Positions 6,650 through 11,887 of a stretch of DNA of 32,731 nt are shown here, piece after piece. The notes beneath the pieces were generated by a model. That model had not been told where the DNA came from, searched no databases, and worked only from the letters and a program-made list of their open reading frames with translations. Source of the stretch: Candidatus Moranbacteria bacterium CG23_combo_of_CG06-09_8_20_14_all_35_22 (GTDB lineage: Bacteria; Patescibacteriota; Minisyncoccia; Moranbacterales; UBA2206); contig PCRW01000076.1 of assembly GCA_002772115.1 (NCBI GenBank), positions 1,802 through 34,532 on the forward strand, given 5' to 3'. Both the position numbers and the translations under genes were made by a program. Position 1 is the first letter of the stretch. The number at the start of each line of letters is the position of its first letter.

Positions 6650-7016
6650 AAATTTCTACTTTCATAATATCTTCTATATCATATTTTCGCAAATATTTCA
6701 GGAATATAAAAAGAGCCAAAATACCAAAAATAGCATCGATAATATTTTTGAAAAATAGGTATAACATTTTACAAAAATAAACAACAAAAAGGAAACTCCC
6801 AAAAAGAAATAGCATAGAGAGAACAAACCCGCAAGCAGATAAACAACCCATTACTAAAATAGCAACAAAGGATGAGGCAGTCGTCAAATGATAAAGATAG
6901 GACGATAACTCCCATAACACAAACAAAATTAAACTTAAAAAACATAATGAACTTCCAGTTAATAGACAATCGCCAACTACTTCTTTCTTCAATTCACTGT
7001 CCAATATTTTTTTCAT
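6642..7016 (-). CDS. Hypothetical membrane protein
   Basis: Hydrophobic segments; ATG at 7016 follows a purine-rich SD; overlaps the cca start. Confidence 0.6.
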   Translation of the reverse strand: MKKILDSELKKEVVGDCLLTGSSLCFLSLILFVLWELSSYLYHLTTASSFVAILVMGCLSACGFVLSMLFLFGSFLFVVYFCKMLYLFFKNIIDAIFGILALFIFLKYLRKYDIEDIMKVEIYD

Positions 7017-7095
7017 TTTCCCTCTCCTTTTTAAATTTTCAAAGATCTCTGCTAAGCCTCCAATTGACCTATTCAATTTTTCAGCTTAACAAAAG

Positions 7096-7124
7096 AGTAT
7101 AGCATACTATTTTTATTTTGTCAA
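7096..7124 (-). promoter_or_regulatory. Sigma70 promoter
   Basis: TTGACA-17-TATACT with extended TG. Confidence 0.75.
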
Positions 7125-7241
7125 CCCTTTTTGATGATAATTTTGCATAATTTTGATATTTTGCTTTATATTAGCCTTAATTTTAAATAATCAAACAAAG
7201 GTTTATTTGCTATTTTTCTTCCCCTGTGCTATAATTAAGCT

Positions 7242-7985
7242 ATGATAAAAAACATTTTCAAAAAACAGCTGATTGGTCTTGGTTTTAGTGATCACGAGGC
7301 GGATATCTATCTAGTTCTACTAGAAAATGGACATTCCTCGACTGGACCAATTATCAAAAAAACTAATTTGCATCGAAATATCGTCTATGAGACGCTAAAT
7401 AAGTTAGTTAACAAGAAATTCGTTTCTGAATCTAATCAACGAGGCATAAAACACTACAAAGCACTAAATCCAGAAAAAATATTGCATCATAAAGAAGAAC
7501 AATTCAATCTTGCTCAAAATTTAATCCCCCAACTTAAGGATTTACAAACAAAAGAAAAAGTTGAAGTAGTTTTATATGAAGGTTTAAGCGGTTTTCAGAC
7601 AGCTCTTAAAAACGCAATTGATAGAATTACTCCCAATCAAAATATATTGGTTTTAGCAACTGGAGGAGAATTTTTTTACAAAAATATTGGCAATGCTCTT
7701 AAATATTACGACAAAAAAAGAAAAGAGAAAAAAATCAATATCAAAATGATTTATCAATCTTCCAAAAACGAAAGCCTGGCAAAAACTACACGCCTTAGAC
7801 CACTTATGGAAGTTAAATATATTGAATCTCCTTTTTTGCCAATTTCTGAAATTGAAATTATGGAAAATACAATTTTAATGCAAATTTATTCTGATCCTCC
7901 TGTGGTAATTGAAATATCCAGCAAAGAAGTCGCCGATAGTTACAGAAATCATTTTACTGATCTTTGGGAGAAAGCTGAAAAATAA
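7242..7985 (+). CDS. TrmB-family HTH transcriptional regulator
   Basis: GFSDHEADIYLVLL and VYETLNKLVNKKFV; C-terminal FTDLWEKA; TGCTATAAT ends 6 nt before the ATG. Confidence 0.85.
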   Translation: MIKNIFKKQLIGLGFSDHEADIYLVLLENGHSSTGPIIKKTNLHRNIVYETLNKLVNKKFVSESNQRGIKHYKALNPEKILHHKEEQFNLAQNLIPQLKDLQTKEKVEVVLYEGLSGFQTALKNAIDRITPNQNILVLATGGEFFYKNIGNALKYYDKKRKEKKINIKMIYQSSKNESLAKTTRLRPLMEVKYIESPFLPISEIEIMENTILMQIYSDPPVVIEISSKEVADSYRNHFTDLWEKAEK

Positions 7986-8001
7986 TTCCTTTTAAAATCA
8001 C

Positions 8002-8031
8002 AAAAAAAATCACTACGCAGTGATTTTTTTT
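8002..8031. terminator. Bidirectional intrinsic terminator
   Basis: AAAAAAAATCACT-ACGC-AGTGATTTTTTTT between convergent units. Confidence 0.7.
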
Positions 8032-8041
8032 ATTTGTTTTG

Positions 8042-8240
8042 TGTCCCCACCAAGAATCGAACTTGAATCTAGAGCTTCCGCCAAAGGCGGACAAGTAGGA
8101 GTCTCTGTTCCCCGCCTGCCATCGCCTGTGCCCTCGTCAAGAATCGAACTTGAATCTAGAGCTTAGGAGTCTCTTGTTCTATCCGTTGAACTACGAGGGC
8201 TCAGGCAAAGGCGGGCAGGTATCCATTGAACTATGAGGAC
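8042..8240 (-). pseudogene. Outer interrupted tRNA-Arg(CCU) copy
   Basis: GTCCTCA/TGGGGAC acceptor stem and an intact T arm; broken by a 109-nt insert in the D-loop (8111-8219) and an ~19-nt hairpin after the anticodon (~8077-8095). Confidence 0.85.
8129..8200 (-). tRNA. tRNA-Arg(CCU), intact, nested in the outer copy
   Basis: GCCCTCG/CGAGGGC acceptor, GTTC/GAAC D stem, CT-CCT-AA loop, TCAAG-TTCGATT-CTTGA T arm; 31-39 mismatch; no encoded CCA. Confidence 0.92.
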
Positions 8241-8245
8241 AATCG

Positions 8246-8872
8246 TTAGGTTAATTCTTTTTTAATAAATTTTATCATACTTATAATTAACTTGAATGAT
8301 TTTGTGCCGTTAGTGACTCTTACTCTGCACATACCATAAGGTAATTTTCCTTCTTTCTTTCCTTTTAGCACATTTACATTTACAATACTTTTTATGTTTA
8401 TTCTGCACACTTTTGCCCAATATTTTTTTGATTCATTGATATTTATACTATCATATATTCTTATTGAAACGCGCAAATCATCTTTATTAACACCAATCTC
8501 TTTTATGCAAGAAATGAATACGCGAATAAGATCTGGGTCACTATTAATAATATTCAAGTCTTTTTTTGTTCCCTCTCCCCAATAAATAGCCGCAAGAATT
8601 AAAAGTTTTTCTTTTTTTGAAATTTTTTTTAATAATTTTTTTGCATTATATTCAGATTCTTTCCATAATTTTTCGGCCCTAACAATACTACCTCCTTGCT
8701 TTCTTTTAAGAATATCCGCAAATTCAGGCAAAACAGCTACTTCTTTCGTATATCTCTGGATTGTAGATTTACCTCTTCCTAACACTGTGCAAATTTCAGA
8801 TATACTATGCCCTTTTTGACGAAGGTTTTTAATCTGATTAGCTTCTTTTTTTGTTATAATTTTTCCATTCAT
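8246..8872 (-). CDS. HTH plus LAGLIDADG-like endonuclease-fold protein
   Basis: N-terminal HTH (LRQKGHSISEI...GKSTIQRY); helix ILAAIYWGEG followed by NSDP; flanked by tRNA-Arg pieces. Confidence 0.7.
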   Translation of the reverse strand: MNGKIITKKEANQIKNLRQKGHSISEICTVLGRGKSTIQRYTKEVAVLPEFADILKRKQGGSIVRAEKLWKESEYNAKKLLKKISKKEKLLILAAIYWGEGTKKDLNIINSDPDLIRVFISCIKEIGVNKDDLRVSIRIYDSININESKKYWAKVCRINIKSIVNVNVLKGKKEGKLPYGMCRVRVTNGTKSFKLIISMIKFIKKELT

Positions 8873-8906
8873 ATATCAATTATAACATAACGAGCGATAT
8901 AATACA

Positions 8907-8942
8907 AGGACGGATTTGCTCTATCCATTGAGCTATGAGGAA
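8907..8942 (-). pseudogene. 5' half of a tRNA-Arg(CCU)
   Basis: TTCCTCATAGCTCAATGGATAGAGCAAATCCGTCCT: D arm intact, similarity ends at the CCT anticodon. Confidence 0.75.
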
Positions 8943-9028
8943 AAATAAAATAAAAAAACCTATACCTTTCAACTACACTATACTTATTGCCAGATAGTTA
9001 TTAAACTATGAAAAATTGTTAACTAAAA

Positions 9029-9637
9029 TTAAATTTTTTCAACCAAATCAGGATACTTTTCCAAAGCTTCTTGTTTCAGAAATTTAGCCTGCTTATAATA
9101 TTCATATCTTTTACCATATATTCCTTTCATCAATTCTTCTTTTGAATTTTGGTATTCTTCATATTTTCTTGCAGTGTTTTGTTGCTTAATTTCATCTAAA
9201 AAATATTGGATGTCCCCTTCAAAAGAAAAAGGCTCTGGATATTTATTAAGAAAATTTTCTGCATCTCTCGCATTAAGATTTTCATAATCATTTGCATTAT
9301 TTAAAACAAGATAGGCTACCATTTTTTCCATTTGTTTGTTTCCTAAAATTTTAGCAAATAATCCCGCTGGCTCATCCGGATTTACAGGCGCCTTGATACA
9401 GAGTAATAATTCTCTAAAATCATCTTCCATAATTTCTCCTTTAGCAATTTTTTCAATAACCTCATTTCTGATTTCATCTCTCACGCGAAATATTTTTTCT
9501 TCTAAAATTTCTGGTTTTCTTTCTTTAAGGTAAGCAATTATTTTATTTTGTTGTCTAATATTAGGTATTTCGCTTTTTTTATCTTCTTCGCTTTTGTGAA
9601 TAATTGTTATCCCCTCAAAACCTGGGTTATTAAGCAT
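9029..9637 (-). CDS. Hypothetical protein
   Basis: 202-aa ORF with typical K/E-rich composition; no motif recognised. Confidence 0.7.
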   Translation of the reverse strand: MLNNPGFEGITIIHKSEEDKKSEIPNIRQQNKIIAYLKERKPEILEEKIFRVRDEIRNEVIEKIAKGEIMEDDFRELLLCIKAPVNPDEPAGLFAKILGNKQMEKMVAYLVLNNANDYENLNARDAENFLNKYPEPFSFEGDIQYFLDEIKQQNTARKYEEYQNSKEELMKGIYGKRYEYYKQAKFLKQEALEKYPDLVEKI

Positions 9638-9729
9638 AGTTTTATTTTTATAAATAATTATATTTTTCTAAAAACATTCATCCCTATTTATTTAAATTTA
9701 AAATTATTTAACAGGGTGAATTTTTTTAG

Positions 9730-9800
9730 TGGACCTATGGAGAATTGGACTCCAGACTGATCCATGCCATGGATCCGTAATACCACTTTACTATAGGCCC
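9730..9800 (-). tRNA. tRNA-Ala(GGC)
   Basis: G3-U70 pair; GATCC-ATGGCAT-GGATC anticodon arm with A32/U38; atypical T-loop TCCAATT. Confidence 0.9.
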
Positions 9801-9886
9801 AACATATTTTACACTAACCTAATCATATTTTATTTACTTCACTTGGTCAATGGTTTTTTTTGAAATTTACGCTATAATCAACTTAT

Positions 9887-11887
9887 ATGAGTAGTTTGAT
9901 TTCTAGATTTTGGAACAATTTCAAAACTCAACCAGATATGTGGTTCTTTTTTGGGTTTTTATTAACTTTTACGCTAAGTATTAGGAAAGTAATGTTATAC
10001 TTTCCAATCCAAGGAACTTTCAATGAATATTCCGGAGTGTTTATCTACCTTTCAGATGTTTTTCTAATTTTAACTCTAGTTTTCTGGTTTATATCTATAT
10101 TATGCAATGATTTTATTATTTTGTCAAGGTACAGGCTGTGGATAAGTAGTGCTTTCCACAAGTTACCCCCACACCAAAATTATAAATATAATCTCTATAA
10201 AATTAAGATTTATCTAAAAAATAGCCTCAAAATGAGAGCAAAGCGTATTTTTAATTTTTGGTGGAGGGGCATGTACATATTTTTACCTCTATTTTTAGTT
10301 TTTCTTTCTTTTTTATCAATTCTATGGTCGCAAAATCTGTCAATAGCCCTTTTCCGATCATTTAAGCTTTTGGAGTTTTATTTATTATATCTTTATATTA
10401 TTTTCAGATTTGTTTCAAAATTGTTCCACGCCCGCCTGCCAAAAAATTGTTCCGCGCCTATCTGCGACAATAATGTTCCACGCCCGCCTGCCGGCGAGGC
10501 AGGTGGAACATCCATCAATGAGAAGCAAGGATCAACCTCTAATTGTTCCACATGGAACAATTTTGGGCGGGTGGAACAATTTTGGGCGGGTGGAACAATT
10601 TGGTTATTTTTTAACATCATTATAATTTTAGGCTTATTTCAAGCCATAATCGGCATCATTCAATTTTTCCTACAAAAATCAATTGACCTATTTTGGCTTC
10701 GAGAAAGCCTAATTTCACCAGAAATCCTTGGGGTGGCTAAAGTAATCTTAAATGGAGAAAAATACATCCGCGCCTATGGCCTTATGACACATCCTAATGT
10801 TTTGGGTGGATTCTTACTATTTTCTATTGTTATCACATTATTATATAAAAAAATGTTCCATATGAAACATCAACTACCCCCCTCGCCTTTACAAGGAGAT
10901 GGGCAAGGGGTGAGGTTAAGCGATGTTCCACGTGGAACAATATCAGAAAAAAAGATATCTTCAATATCCAATTGTTCCACATGGAACAATTGGATATTTA
11001 GGCTTATTTTAGCCATTCAAATTTTAGCGCTAATCTTAACATTCTCAAAATCAGCCATAATTGGGCTCATTATCGCTCTTATATGCCTATCTGTGCCTGC
11101 CCGCCAAAAAAATGTTCCATGTGGAACACTATCAAAAGAAGAGTTTTATCCAAATTCAAATTGTTCCACGTGGAACAATTCTAAAATACACCTCACCCAA
11201 TCCCTCTCCTTATTAAGGAGAAAGTGGCTCAAGATGTTCCATGTGGAACATTTGAAATTAATAATCCTCTCGGTCTTAATTATTTTAGTATCCATATTTT
11301 TCATAATTAAACCCAATTTGAATTCTTTATTTTTTAATTCCCTAAATGAACGCCTATTTTATCTAAATGTTCCATATGGAACATTTGAGAGTGATCTAGT
11401 ATTGGGAATTGGCGCCGGACAATCAGTCCTAATGATGCAAAAATTTTACTCACAAACTTTAGAATTCTGGCAATATCAGCCTATTCATAATGTTTTTCTA
11501 CTAATATTTAGCGAGTTAGGCTTAATCGGTCTAGGGTTATTTATTTGGTGGTTGTGGAAATTGTTCCACGTGGAACAATTTGAAAATTCACCTCATCCTA
11601 ACCTTCTCCTTATTAAGGAGAAGGAACTTGCCCCCCTCTCCTTTATAAGGAGAGGGGCAGGGGGTGAGGTTAAAATTGTTCCACATGGAACAATAGAAAA
11701 TAACGACTACATATTACACAATAATAATATATATTTGTCAAGTATAATATTCTCTCGATATTTCCAAAGAATTCTTTTAGGTCTTATTTTTATCATGCTT
11801 TTTGACCATTATATCTGGGATATCCAACAGGGGAGCCTCCTATTCTGGCTAACCGCCGGCTTTGTTGCTGGAATAAGCAGGAAATAA
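9887..11887 (+). CDS. O-antigen ligase/Wzy_C-like membrane protein with many repeat-derived inserts
   Basis: RAYGLMTHPNVLGG, TFSKSA, GIGAG, PIHNVFLLIFSELGLIG and FDHY motifs; many transmembrane segments. Confidence 0.82.
   Translation: MSSLISRFWNNFKTQPDMWFFFGFLLTFTLSIRKVMLYFPIQGTFNEYSGVFIYLSDVFLILTLVFWFISILCNDFIILSRYRLWISSAFHKLPPHQNYKYNLYKIKIYLKNSLKMRAKRIFNFWWRGMYIFLPLFLVFLSFLSILWSQNLSIALFRSFKLLEFYLLYLYIIFRFVSKLFHARLPKNCSAPICDNNVPRPPAGEAGGTSINEKQGSTSNCSTWNNFGRVEQFWAGGTIWLFFNIIIILGLFQAIIGIIQFFLQKSIDLFWLRESLISPEILGVAKVILNGEKYIRAYGLMTHPNVLGGFLLFSIVITLLYKKMFHMKHQLPPSPLQGDGQGVRLSDVPRGTISEKKISSISNCSTWNNWIFRLILAIQILALILTFSKSAIIGLIIALICLSVPARQKNVPCGTLSKEEFYPNSNCSTWNNSKIHLTQSLSLLRRKWLKMFHVEHLKLIILSVLIILVSIFFIIKPNLNSLFFNSLNERLFYLNVPYGTFESDLVLGIGAGQSVLMMQKFYSQTLEFWQYQPIHNVFLLIFSELGLIGLGLFIWWLWKLFHVEQFENSPHPNLLLIKEKELAPLSFIRRGAGGEVKIVPHGTIENNDYILHNNNIYLSSIIFSRYFQRILLGLIFIMLFDHYIWDIQQGSLLFWLTAGFVAGISRK
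10137..10145 (-). promoter_or_regulatory. DnaA-box consensus (TTATCCACA) inside the CDS
   Basis: TGTGGATAA on the + strand, with degenerate boxes just downstream (~10152-10172). Confidence 0.4.
10422..11692. promoter_or_regulatory. Cluster of parS centromere-like sites
   Basis: TGTTCCAYRTGRAACA at 10544, 10854, 10924, 10973, 11113, 11162, 11235, 11368, 11562 and 11677; one split site at 10474-10510; several half sites. Confidence 0.88.
10877..11669. repeat. CCTCACCC...CCCTCTCC-GGAGAGGG hairpin repeats (family C)
   Basis: Copies at 10877-10915, 11191-11224 and an inverted doublet at 11591-11669; more in pcrA at 30370-30403 and 32286-32321. Confidence 0.87.

Follow-up and report, generated by a model that had tools for sequence, protein, structure and literature searches.

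How did an open reading frame (ORF) come to lie directly behind the anticodon of a broken transfer RNA (tRNA) gene and directly in front of a further copy of the same tRNA? The question is raised by a locus of Candidatus Moranbacteria bacterium CG23_combo_of_CG06-09_8_20_14_all_35_22, analysed here in a stretch of 32,731 nucleotides (nt; hereafter the window) that belongs to contig C43 of a genome of 906 kb in 82 contigs, with 34.6% G+C and an estimated completeness of 94%. The ORF encodes a 208-residue protein with a helix-turn-helix (HTH) and a LAGLIDADG-like domain, and the tRNA on both sides of it is tRNA-Arg(CCU). We lean towards reading the ORF as a free-standing, intron-less homing-endonuclease gene of a new divergent LAGLIDADG-type family (HTH plus a single domain, forming a homodimer), which has its niche at tRNA-Arg(CCU) and entered between positions 36 and 37, bringing a different tRNA copy with it.

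Anatomy of the tRNA-ORF locus

All features of the locus lie on the minus strand and are arranged as follows, in 5' to 3' order.

8943-8907, minus strand: stub A, positions 1-36 of a tRNA-Arg(CCU) with the A-type anticodon arm (C30, C31, G32), broken directly after the anticodon
8906-8873, minus strand: junction or leader of 34 nt, with a TATAAT box at 8881-8876; putative promoter
8872-8246, minus strand: ORF of 208 codons with stop TAA at 8248-8246; HTH and LAGLIDADG-like domain
8245-8241, minus strand: 5-nt spacer separating the stop codon of the ORF from the tRNA start that follows
8240-8221, minus strand: piece B, start of a second tRNA-Arg(CCU) (positions 1-21), the copy travelling with the ORF
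8220-8201, minus strand: left arm of a cassette (i1), GC-rich inverted repeat of 20 nt
8200-8128, minus strand: copy C, intact tRNA-Arg(CCU) in the cassette loop, found by ARAGORN and Rfam (63.5 bits, E 1e-12)
8127-8110, minus strand: right arm of the cassette (i2), GC-rich, 18 nt
8109-8044, minus strand: piece D, remainder of the second tRNA gene (positions 22-76), its anticodon loop interrupted by a GC hairpin of 19 nt (about 8093-8075)
8031-8002, minus strand: perfect inverted repeat of 13 bp with T runs, beyond piece D; possible terminator

Independently assembled contigs from another sequencing run (X6) span 7900-8183 and 8165-8936, junctions included, with 0 differences, and the layout is therefore not an artefact of a single assembly.

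Stub A comprises the acceptor strand, the D arm and the 5' strand of the anticodon stem, followed by GTCCT, in which CCT occupies 8909-8907. Its local alignment with the 5' half of the downstream tRNA scores 30, against a 95th percentile of 16 for shuffled sequences, and none of 200 shuffles reaches 30, which bears out the original prediction, made from the letters of the window, that a tRNA 5' half ends at CCT (8907). Positions 3-36 of the stub are identical to the intact tRNA-Arg(CCU) of G005, a member of the same genus as the genome of the window (G000; others of this genus include G001, G002, G004 and G006), and the stub aligns with the intact tRNAs of G005, G006, G007 and G013 through CCT and diverges afterwards.

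On its other side, the ORF is directly followed, as had been predicted, by the next tRNA copy, which starts 5 nt after the stop codon. The letters at this end, CCTAACGATT (8250-8241), had been taken for the anticodon and the 3' strand of its stem, but are the last codons of the ORF and a conserved 5-nt spacer; a spacer of the same kind (TGATT) is present in the two closest loci (L002 and L003), whatever their stub. The pairing of AATCC with CGATT at 4 of 5 positions that was noted there is present, but it is no better than chance, since L002 has CTTAATGATT at this place and its stub stem cannot pair.

The acceptor strand of piece B (8240-8234) pairs in the fold with that of piece D, and neither pairs with those of copy C, so that B and D are one gene split by the cassette that holds C. 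In L002, the locus of the closest relative, the gene matching piece B is uninterrupted and begins 5 nt past the ORF. Copy C is the sole intact tRNA-Arg(CCU) of the genome (one Arg-cct among the 26 tRNAs found), and the second tRNA gene, with the hairpin in piece D, is probably dead. What had been read as three generations of the same tRNA thus resolves into the stub of the ORF element, the tRNA that travels with the ORF, and a separate GC-rich cassette.

Non-coding sequence flanking the ORF is limited to 34 nt before it and 5 nt after it, and a search of Rfam at E<=10 over 7000-10500 yields no intron model, in agreement with the predicted absence of a group I ribozyme. Judged from its sequence, the 34-nt leader would be the promoter of the ORF and probably also that of the tRNA behind it. 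In related loci, a -10-like box (TATAAT) ends 3-12 nt before the start codon in 61/78 cases against 5/78 control windows, and the messenger RNA would therefore be leaderless or nearly so. The 13-bp repeat at 8031-8002 is a putative terminator that a terminator scan of the window does not list.

Fold and family of the 208-residue protein

An N-terminal HTH of the Hin/Tc3 type (residues ~3-45) is joined by a helical linker to a C-terminal LAGLIDADG-like domain with a single motif (residues ~82-208). Sequence searches respond to the HTH: Pfam matches are restricted to the N-terminal HTH (HTH_38 and HTH_7), a sequence search of the PDB leads to the HTH of Hin, and NCBIfam and PHROGs give HTH matches only. 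No integrase family is matched in Pfam, NCBIfam or PHROGs, and the C-terminal domain is without a Pfam model.

The motif of this domain is YWGEGTK, which the structure models place at the end of helix 86-99. Y97, W98, E100 and G101 are invariant in both the 36-sequence and the 41-sequence sets, and the further invariant residues of the 36-sequence alignment include K103, N110, D112, R138 and G180-R185. The family profile matches I-DmoI at E 0.025-0.06 over the second LAGLIDADG motif, with E100 placed over the Glu of the I-DmoI motif.

When the C-terminal domain is modelled alone (pLDDT 92.6) and submitted to a wide VIA structural search, the top match is I-DmoI (Z 7.7, root-mean-square deviation 2.7, 83 residues aligned), and 9 of the top 12 rows have the LAGLIDADG fold, namely I-DmoI, WhiA three times, the TliVMA intein, E-DreI, I-Vdi141I, PI-PfuI and I-MsoI. 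These matches agree with the LAGLIDADG core fold (alpha-beta-beta-alpha-beta-beta-alpha), between the beta strands of which the model carries an extra helix. With the whole-protein model (pLDDT 84), I-DmoI ranks 22nd (Z 4.8). A search of the Atlas returns unnamed look-alike clusters only and, by structure, gives TM values of 0.84-0.90 to HTH proteins of Actinomycetota and Minisyncoccota, the aligned part of which belongs to no family.

Two copies of residues 60-208 are predicted to form a homodimer in which helix 87-100 packs against its mate, with contacts that include 88-88, 92-92 and 95-95. The score is 0.89 against 0.00 for the best control, although it may partly reflect likeness to solved LAGLIDADG dimers; the mark applied to it is reached by 20/30 proteins solved as pairs and 1/23 solved as single chains. 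Between runs, contact agreement is 100%, and pLDDT is at least 90.

On these models, the C-terminal domain is a divergent LAGLIDADG-like domain that keeps the acidic residue and lies outside all curated families. The original prediction of a LAGLIDADG-like ORF is upheld by the C-domain search, by the motif profile (E 0.025) and by the predicted dimer of motif helices, but not by Pfam models, hhalign or Foldseek. Homologues number 245 in a word-indexed search, and the cluster representatives that match number 4602 at E<=0.001, 2414 at E<=1e-10 and 114 at E<=1e-30; the relatives that carry homologues are labelled Parcubacteria, Moraniibacteriota or Patescibacteria.

tRNA linkage, filled and empty sites, and the GC-rich cassette

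For the survey of loci, one genome per species was scanned, giving 386 relatives, and the best 80 loci were analysed; genome comparisons covered 41 relatives for the presence of the ORF, 61 relatives for the GC arm, and 251 genomes of the class for counts of arms and ORFs. In 79 of the 80 loci, a tRNA-Arg(CCU) on the same strand has its start -51 to +92 nt from the end of the ORF, and in the 80th the contig ends inside the tRNA, so that the expected association of homologues with tRNA is found. As a baseline, 8/684 ORFs of at least 150 residues in the genome have a tRNA so placed, and the three of these that were checked are ordinary genes. The ORF is often without a stop codon of its own and reads into the tRNA, where it stops at TAG (positions 8-10) or TAA (positions 36-38), and it is these overruns that give the protein alignment its odd C-terminal tails.

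In 12/78 loci, against 0/78 controls, the start codon is preceded at 33-35 nt by a tRNA 5' half broken after CCT, the distance in the window being 34 nt. Weaker traces are found upstream of more loci, with the CCT-junction motif in 37/78 (3 in controls) and a D-loop motif in 21/78 (1 in controls). The predicted insertion at tRNA anticodons therefore holds for tRNA-Arg(CCU), where the breaks fall exactly after CCT in these 12 loci and the window, but not for paralogues at other tRNAs, which are without clear stubs.

The stubs share the A-type anticodon arm (C30, C31 and G32). This arm is intact in the tRNA-Arg(CCU) of nine relatives that have no ORF (G004, G005, G006, G007, G013, G025, G031, G036 and G039) and in 99/251 genomes of the class, with 0 for a reversed control pattern, and it is found in 0/79 of the tRNAs linked to an ORF. 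An intact A-type gene is present in 1/14 ORF-bearing genomes, on another contig, against 98/237 ORF-less genomes (one-sided Fisher p 0.0076, a significance overstated through kinship).

The distribution of the Arg-type ORF (E<=1e-35) is patchy: it occurs in 14/251 genomes of the class, each of a different genus, and among the 41 relatives it is present in 3, some member of the family being present in 21. Filled and empty states of one site can be compared within the genus of the window. In G004 and G006, an A-type tRNA-Arg stands 15 nt after tRNA-Ala(GGC), and the site is empty; in G002, also without the ORF, a non-A tRNA-Arg stands directly after tRNA-Ala and is followed by the gene for the CCA enzyme; and in G000 and G001, stub and ORF are present. 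G005 is without the Arg-type ORF and has a paralogue before its tRNA-Ala; in the window it is the other way round. Several ORF-bearing loci hold the ORF between tRNA-Ala and tRNA-Arg. Polymorphism for presence and absence at a single site and patchy spread, the two signs by which a homing gene is recognised, are thus both observed. The stub of the window matches that of its closest ORF-bearing relative at ~24/36 positions, despite 88% identity of the ORFs, a comparison of sequences that hints at separate entries and is not decisive.

Paralogues extend the linkage to other tRNAs. In 21/27 paralogue loci, a same-strand tRNA starts -22 to +29 nt from the ORF end, and the neighbours (L096-L122) comprise tRNA Lys-CUU, Phe, Gln-UUG, Arg-UCU, Gly-GCC, Gly-UCC, Met, Val-GAC, Tyr, Trp and Ala-GGC. 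A protein tree requires 13 changes of neighbouring tRNA for 13 groups (minimum 12), compared with a mean of 25.4 after shuffling, and 0/200 shuffles are as low. The Arg-CCU, Gln, Tyr and Ala groups are fully supported and several lineages occur within single genomes, so that paralogue lineages track the tRNA rather than the host genome. A short form of the paralogue (~199 residues) lies 530-680 nt ahead of tRNA-Trp in four genomes. Canonical LAGLIDADG_3 ORFs also occur in relatives, and 8/9 of them abut a tRNA; one canonical two-domain LAGLIDADG gene of the window's own genome (L134, G000:C60:854-1514) stands between tRNA-Met and tRNA-Asp and is split into ORFs of 70 and 144 residues, its counterpart being whole (219-223 residues) in G008, G002 and G004.

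A wider, and tentative, reading is that Patescibacteria contain an extensive guild, so far undescribed, of LAGLIDADG-type homing genes that do without introns, with every lineage specialised on a single tRNA gene (Arg-CCU, Arg-UCU, Gln, Gly, Met, Tyr, Ala, Val, Lys, Phe or Trp), in which the tRNA would act as a portable homology arm and the resistant allele and promoter would be supplied by the gene, which the host could therefore not easily lose. Together with the GC-rich mini-elements described next, such genes would make tRNA genes a battlefield of selfish DNA and would, if the reading is true, drive the turnover of tRNA alleles in reduced genomes.

The GC-rich palindromic cassette lies in the D loop of the second tRNA (8240-8221 and 8109-8044), with copy C within it. 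Taken with the acceptor stem of C, its two arms are 27 nt long and 81% complementary, and the fold of the 206-nt stretch 8245-8040, from the spacer through pieces B to D, has z = -4.98. A segment made up of part of B, the two GC arms and the inner tRNA is found again at 94% identity in G040, a member of another family, with identical arms, and at 80% in G005, where the match is exact in the right arm and fails in the left arm at the two final bases; both genomes have the cassette and no Arg-type ORF. The 18-mer of the right arm (<=2 mismatches) is found in 12/61 relatives, with 15 copies in G026. It belongs to GC mini-elements of ~40 nt in AT-rich hosts, whose arms start CCTGCCCGCC and end GGCAGGCGGG and which we take to resemble the GC clusters of yeast mitochondria and the palindromic elements of Rickettsia. 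Plain copies are hairpins of ~40 nt, and others enclose a further hairpin or an entire tRNA (Thr-CGU in G040:C86). Some copies lie in the D, T or anticodon loop of tRNA genes or of pieces of them, and the 19-nt hairpin of piece D is 81% like arm i1. Copies were located as follows.

Window: 8110-8220 (arms) and ~8075-8093
L084: 1501-1626
L085: 1501-1636
Further loci: L159, L160 and L162-L164

The borders of the inserts in B and D were not fixed by brute-force removal, in which thousands of junction choices give tRNA calls, and a bulge-helix-bulge reading of the 19-nt hairpin was set aside because no splicing endonuclease gene was found. Nested tRNAs are also seen in two ORF-less loci, L087 (G021:C12) and L091 (G009:C6), where tRNA-Arg(CCU) is enclosed by, or adjoins, pieces of a different tRNA; these pieces are flanked by 9-bp GC inverted repeats in L087, and in L091 the T loop is interrupted by a GC hairpin.

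Elsewhere in the genome, 26 tRNA genes are found (27 with the intron option) and none for Pro, His, Asn or Tyr, a shortfall that may be owed to assembly gaps; the deletion of single GC islands genome-wide, in 46,313 trials, restored 0 hidden tRNAs. Upstream of the locus, a 202-residue ORF without a Pfam match (9637-9029, minus strand) occupies the gap between tRNA-Ala(GGC) and stub A and may be a further insertion, since tRNA-Ala and tRNA-Arg are just 15 nt apart in G004 and G006. Beyond it, a 666-residue Wzy_C (O-antigen ligase-like) ORF (9887-11887, plus strand) contains in-frame repeats such as NCSTWNN, FHVEQ and VPRGT and carries GC-rich words resembling the hairpin repeats of the genome; by its sequence, this looks like palindromic repeats inserted in frame within a protein gene.

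Competing explanations and known systems

The course of events proposed for a homing gene would begin with an ancestor that had the common A-type tRNA-Arg(CCU), as sister species keep. The element would have entered this gene between positions 36 and 37, leaving the old 5' half as stub A, and would have contributed first a promoter that arose at the junction, then the ORF and, directly after it, a tRNA-Arg(CCU) whose anticodon arm differs, so that the cell retained the tRNA. The enzyme would cut A-type genes and spare the accompanying copy, and repair-driven copying would use the conserved tRNA halves as homology arms. The tRNA would be transcribed together with the ORF and probably released from this transcript by RNase P and RNase Z. 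Later, a palindromic GC mini-element holding another tRNA-Arg(CCU) would have inserted into the D loop of the tRNA brought by the element, and a related hairpin into the anticodon loop of that tRNA, leaving the innermost copy alone intact.

Several observations weigh against this course of events. A clean stub end is kept in only 12/78 loci, and paralogues beside other tRNAs show no convincing stub, their signals being weak or due to a neighbouring complete tRNA. The ORF-linked tRNA retains its full anticodon arm, so that self-cleavage must somehow be avoided, and non-A arms are also present in 8/9 of the listed ORF-less tRNAs; as the same non-A arms are common in ORF-less relatives, the idea of an immune allele is not proven, and linked tRNAs as a class distinct from all unlinked ones are ruled out. 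In nearly all loci the ORF is intact, an unusual state for a gene that is purely selfish, and the closest ORF-bearing relative is of the same genus, which is compatible with vertical descent too. A simple promoter scan of the window does not list the TATAAT site at 8881-8876, and its counts are not above those of shuffled sequence. As to the fold, 0/36 members reach the gathering score of Pfam LAGLIDADG_1, _2 or _3, only 2/36 match LAGLIDADG_3 (best E 0.066), and hhalign against 9 canonical LAGLIDADG neighbours aligns nothing outside the HTH. All structural Z scores are below 8, a range that the tool flags as a possible common arrangement, with an unrelated row at 6.7, and Foldseek against the PDB, with the whole model and with the C domain, gives weak IspF-like rows only and no LAGLIDADG protein.

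Some of these points would be met by a domesticated, LAGLIDADG-derived DNA-binding regulator, comparable to WhiA, that binds the promoter or gene region of tRNA-Arg(CCU), controls its own synthesis and that of the tRNA, and descends vertically with many losses, the stub being an old accident kept as operator or promoter. WhiA is the second-best structural match (Z 7.2) and likewise has HTH and LAGLIDADG domains; the ORFs are intact and well conserved in 79/80 loci; upstream, the stub's 3' end and the -10 box recur far more often than in controls; and the intact anticodon arm of the linked tRNA is unproblematic if the protein does not cut. To our knowledge, however, WhiA is without the acidic motif residue, and here the acidic residue that closes the motif helix (E100) is invariant. 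The Arg-type ORF is scattered over 14 genera, sister species have paralogues at other tRNAs instead, canonical LAGLIDADG endonuclease genes occupy the same niche and one is broken in this very genome, and the ORF and intact A-type genes are mutually exclusive but for a single genome. A regulator is therefore regarded as unlikely, though it deserves serious consideration. Far less probable is that the tRNA pieces are integration scars, that is, duplicated attachment sites of tRNA-targeting integrase elements, with the ORF as unrelated cargo or a chance neighbour. Partial tRNA copies by an intact gene, which are present here, are the usual mark of such elements, and nested tRNA pieces also occur near tRNA-Arg(CCU) in ORF-less relatives. 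Against this, the sole ORF between stub and tRNA encodes the 208-residue protein, which matches HTH families only, and no recombinase gene lies between the repeated tRNA parts; the ORF-tRNA junction recurs in 79/80 loci with the stub break fixed at 33-35 nt; and the duplicated part is a 5' half ending at the anticodon.

A true intron or split gene, with stub A as exon 1, the ORF in the intron, and either a ribozyme hidden in the coding sequence, a host enzyme, or joining in trans, is very hard to credit. The break does follow U36 in the anticodon loop, which would be a fitting site and base for a group I intron of a bacterial tRNA, and ARAGORN, when introns are allowed, calls in the same genome a tRNA-Phe(GAA) (G000:C20:2415-2739) whose anticodon loop contains 250 inserted nt, perhaps a group I intron. 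At this locus, however, no intron family is matched in 7000-10500 at E<=10 and just 34 and 5 nt are non-coding; the ORF is followed by a tRNA 5' end and not by the 3' half expected as exon 2; the splicing endonuclease PF01974 was not found in this 94%-complete genome, in a search whose control was positive in 4 archaea; and splicing is not needed, because a complete tRNA-Arg(CCU) lies downstream in every locus. With no intron to assist, there is equally scant reason to expect that the protein acts on the tRNA transcript rather than on DNA, as a maturase-like helper or processing factor. Some LAGLIDADG proteins are maturases, and gene and tRNA would share one transcript, but the HTH is of the DNA-binding Hin/Tc3 kind and the patchy distribution speaks against a needed processing factor.

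It is chiefly from introns and inteins that homing endonucleases are known. A search of the literature on LAGLIDADG and other homing endonucleases together with tRNA genes, covering the candidate phyla radiation or Patescibacteria and partial duplication at the anticodon loop, found no description of the present family, a divergent LAGLIDADG-like family that appears to live on tRNA genes intron-free and to keep its host viable through duplication of the tRNA. If its enzymes are active, they would be a new source of nucleases with long sites specific to tRNA genes, would explain the odd tRNA fragments and nested tRNA genes of these genomes, and would offer a testable example of a selfish gene whose own promoter is coupled to an essential RNA.

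Among characterised endonucleases, I-CreI, I-MsoI, I-CeuI and I-DmoI likewise have a motif helix that ends in an acidic residue and Gly and a two-fold pair of helices, as predicted here; the structural Z scores of the C domain are 7.7 to I-DmoI, 5.4 to I-MsoI, 4.8 to I-CeuI and 4.5 to I-CreI. A target in a conserved RNA gene would also be common to enzymes of the I-CreI type and this family. Those enzymes are, however, encoded within group I or archaeal introns of rRNA genes, whereas this family is intron-less, adds the N-terminal Hin/Tc3-type HTH and the extra helix between beta strands, and fails the Pfam LAGLIDADG models and hhalign. WhiA (DUF199) shares the LAGLIDADG fold and an HTH (Z 7.2 and 6.3 to this C domain), but it has two degenerate LAGLIDADG domains and a C-terminal HTH, and is a conserved single-copy regulator untied to tRNA genes.

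In way of life, a likeness may be sought in the Seg and Mob genes of T-even phages, which are free-standing endonuclease genes that spread by 'intronless homing', SegB lying in the tRNA gene region of T4. As in this ORF, an endonuclease gene free of intron or intein stands beside its presumed target and spreads with a linked uncut allele, but Seg and Mob are phage enzymes of the GIY-YIG or HNH type, and we know of no Seg or Mob gene that leaves a half-tRNA stub or regularly abuts a tRNA 5' end. I-Ssp6803I, the PD-(D/E)XK endonuclease of the group I intron of cyanobacterial tRNA-fMet, likewise has its target at a tRNA anticodon region, but it is carried inside an intron that splices itself out and leaves the RNA of the tRNA unbroken. 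Integrative elements directed at tRNA genes likewise leave a partial tRNA on one side and restore an intact tRNA with element sequence; they do so with tyrosine or serine recombinases and over kilobases, whereas here ~0.7 kb holds one LAGLIDADG-like ORF and the break is at the anticodon. In the same group of bacteria, according to PMC8172020, group I introns occur in tRNAs and LAGLIDADG genes in 16S introns. Finally, the 'fractured genes' with split inteins, as described in PMC2677866, likewise have an intron-free endonuclease gene inside a host gene whose function is rescued otherwise; there, a protein gene is rescued by protein trans-splicing, whereas here the tRNA is rescued by a duplicated copy.

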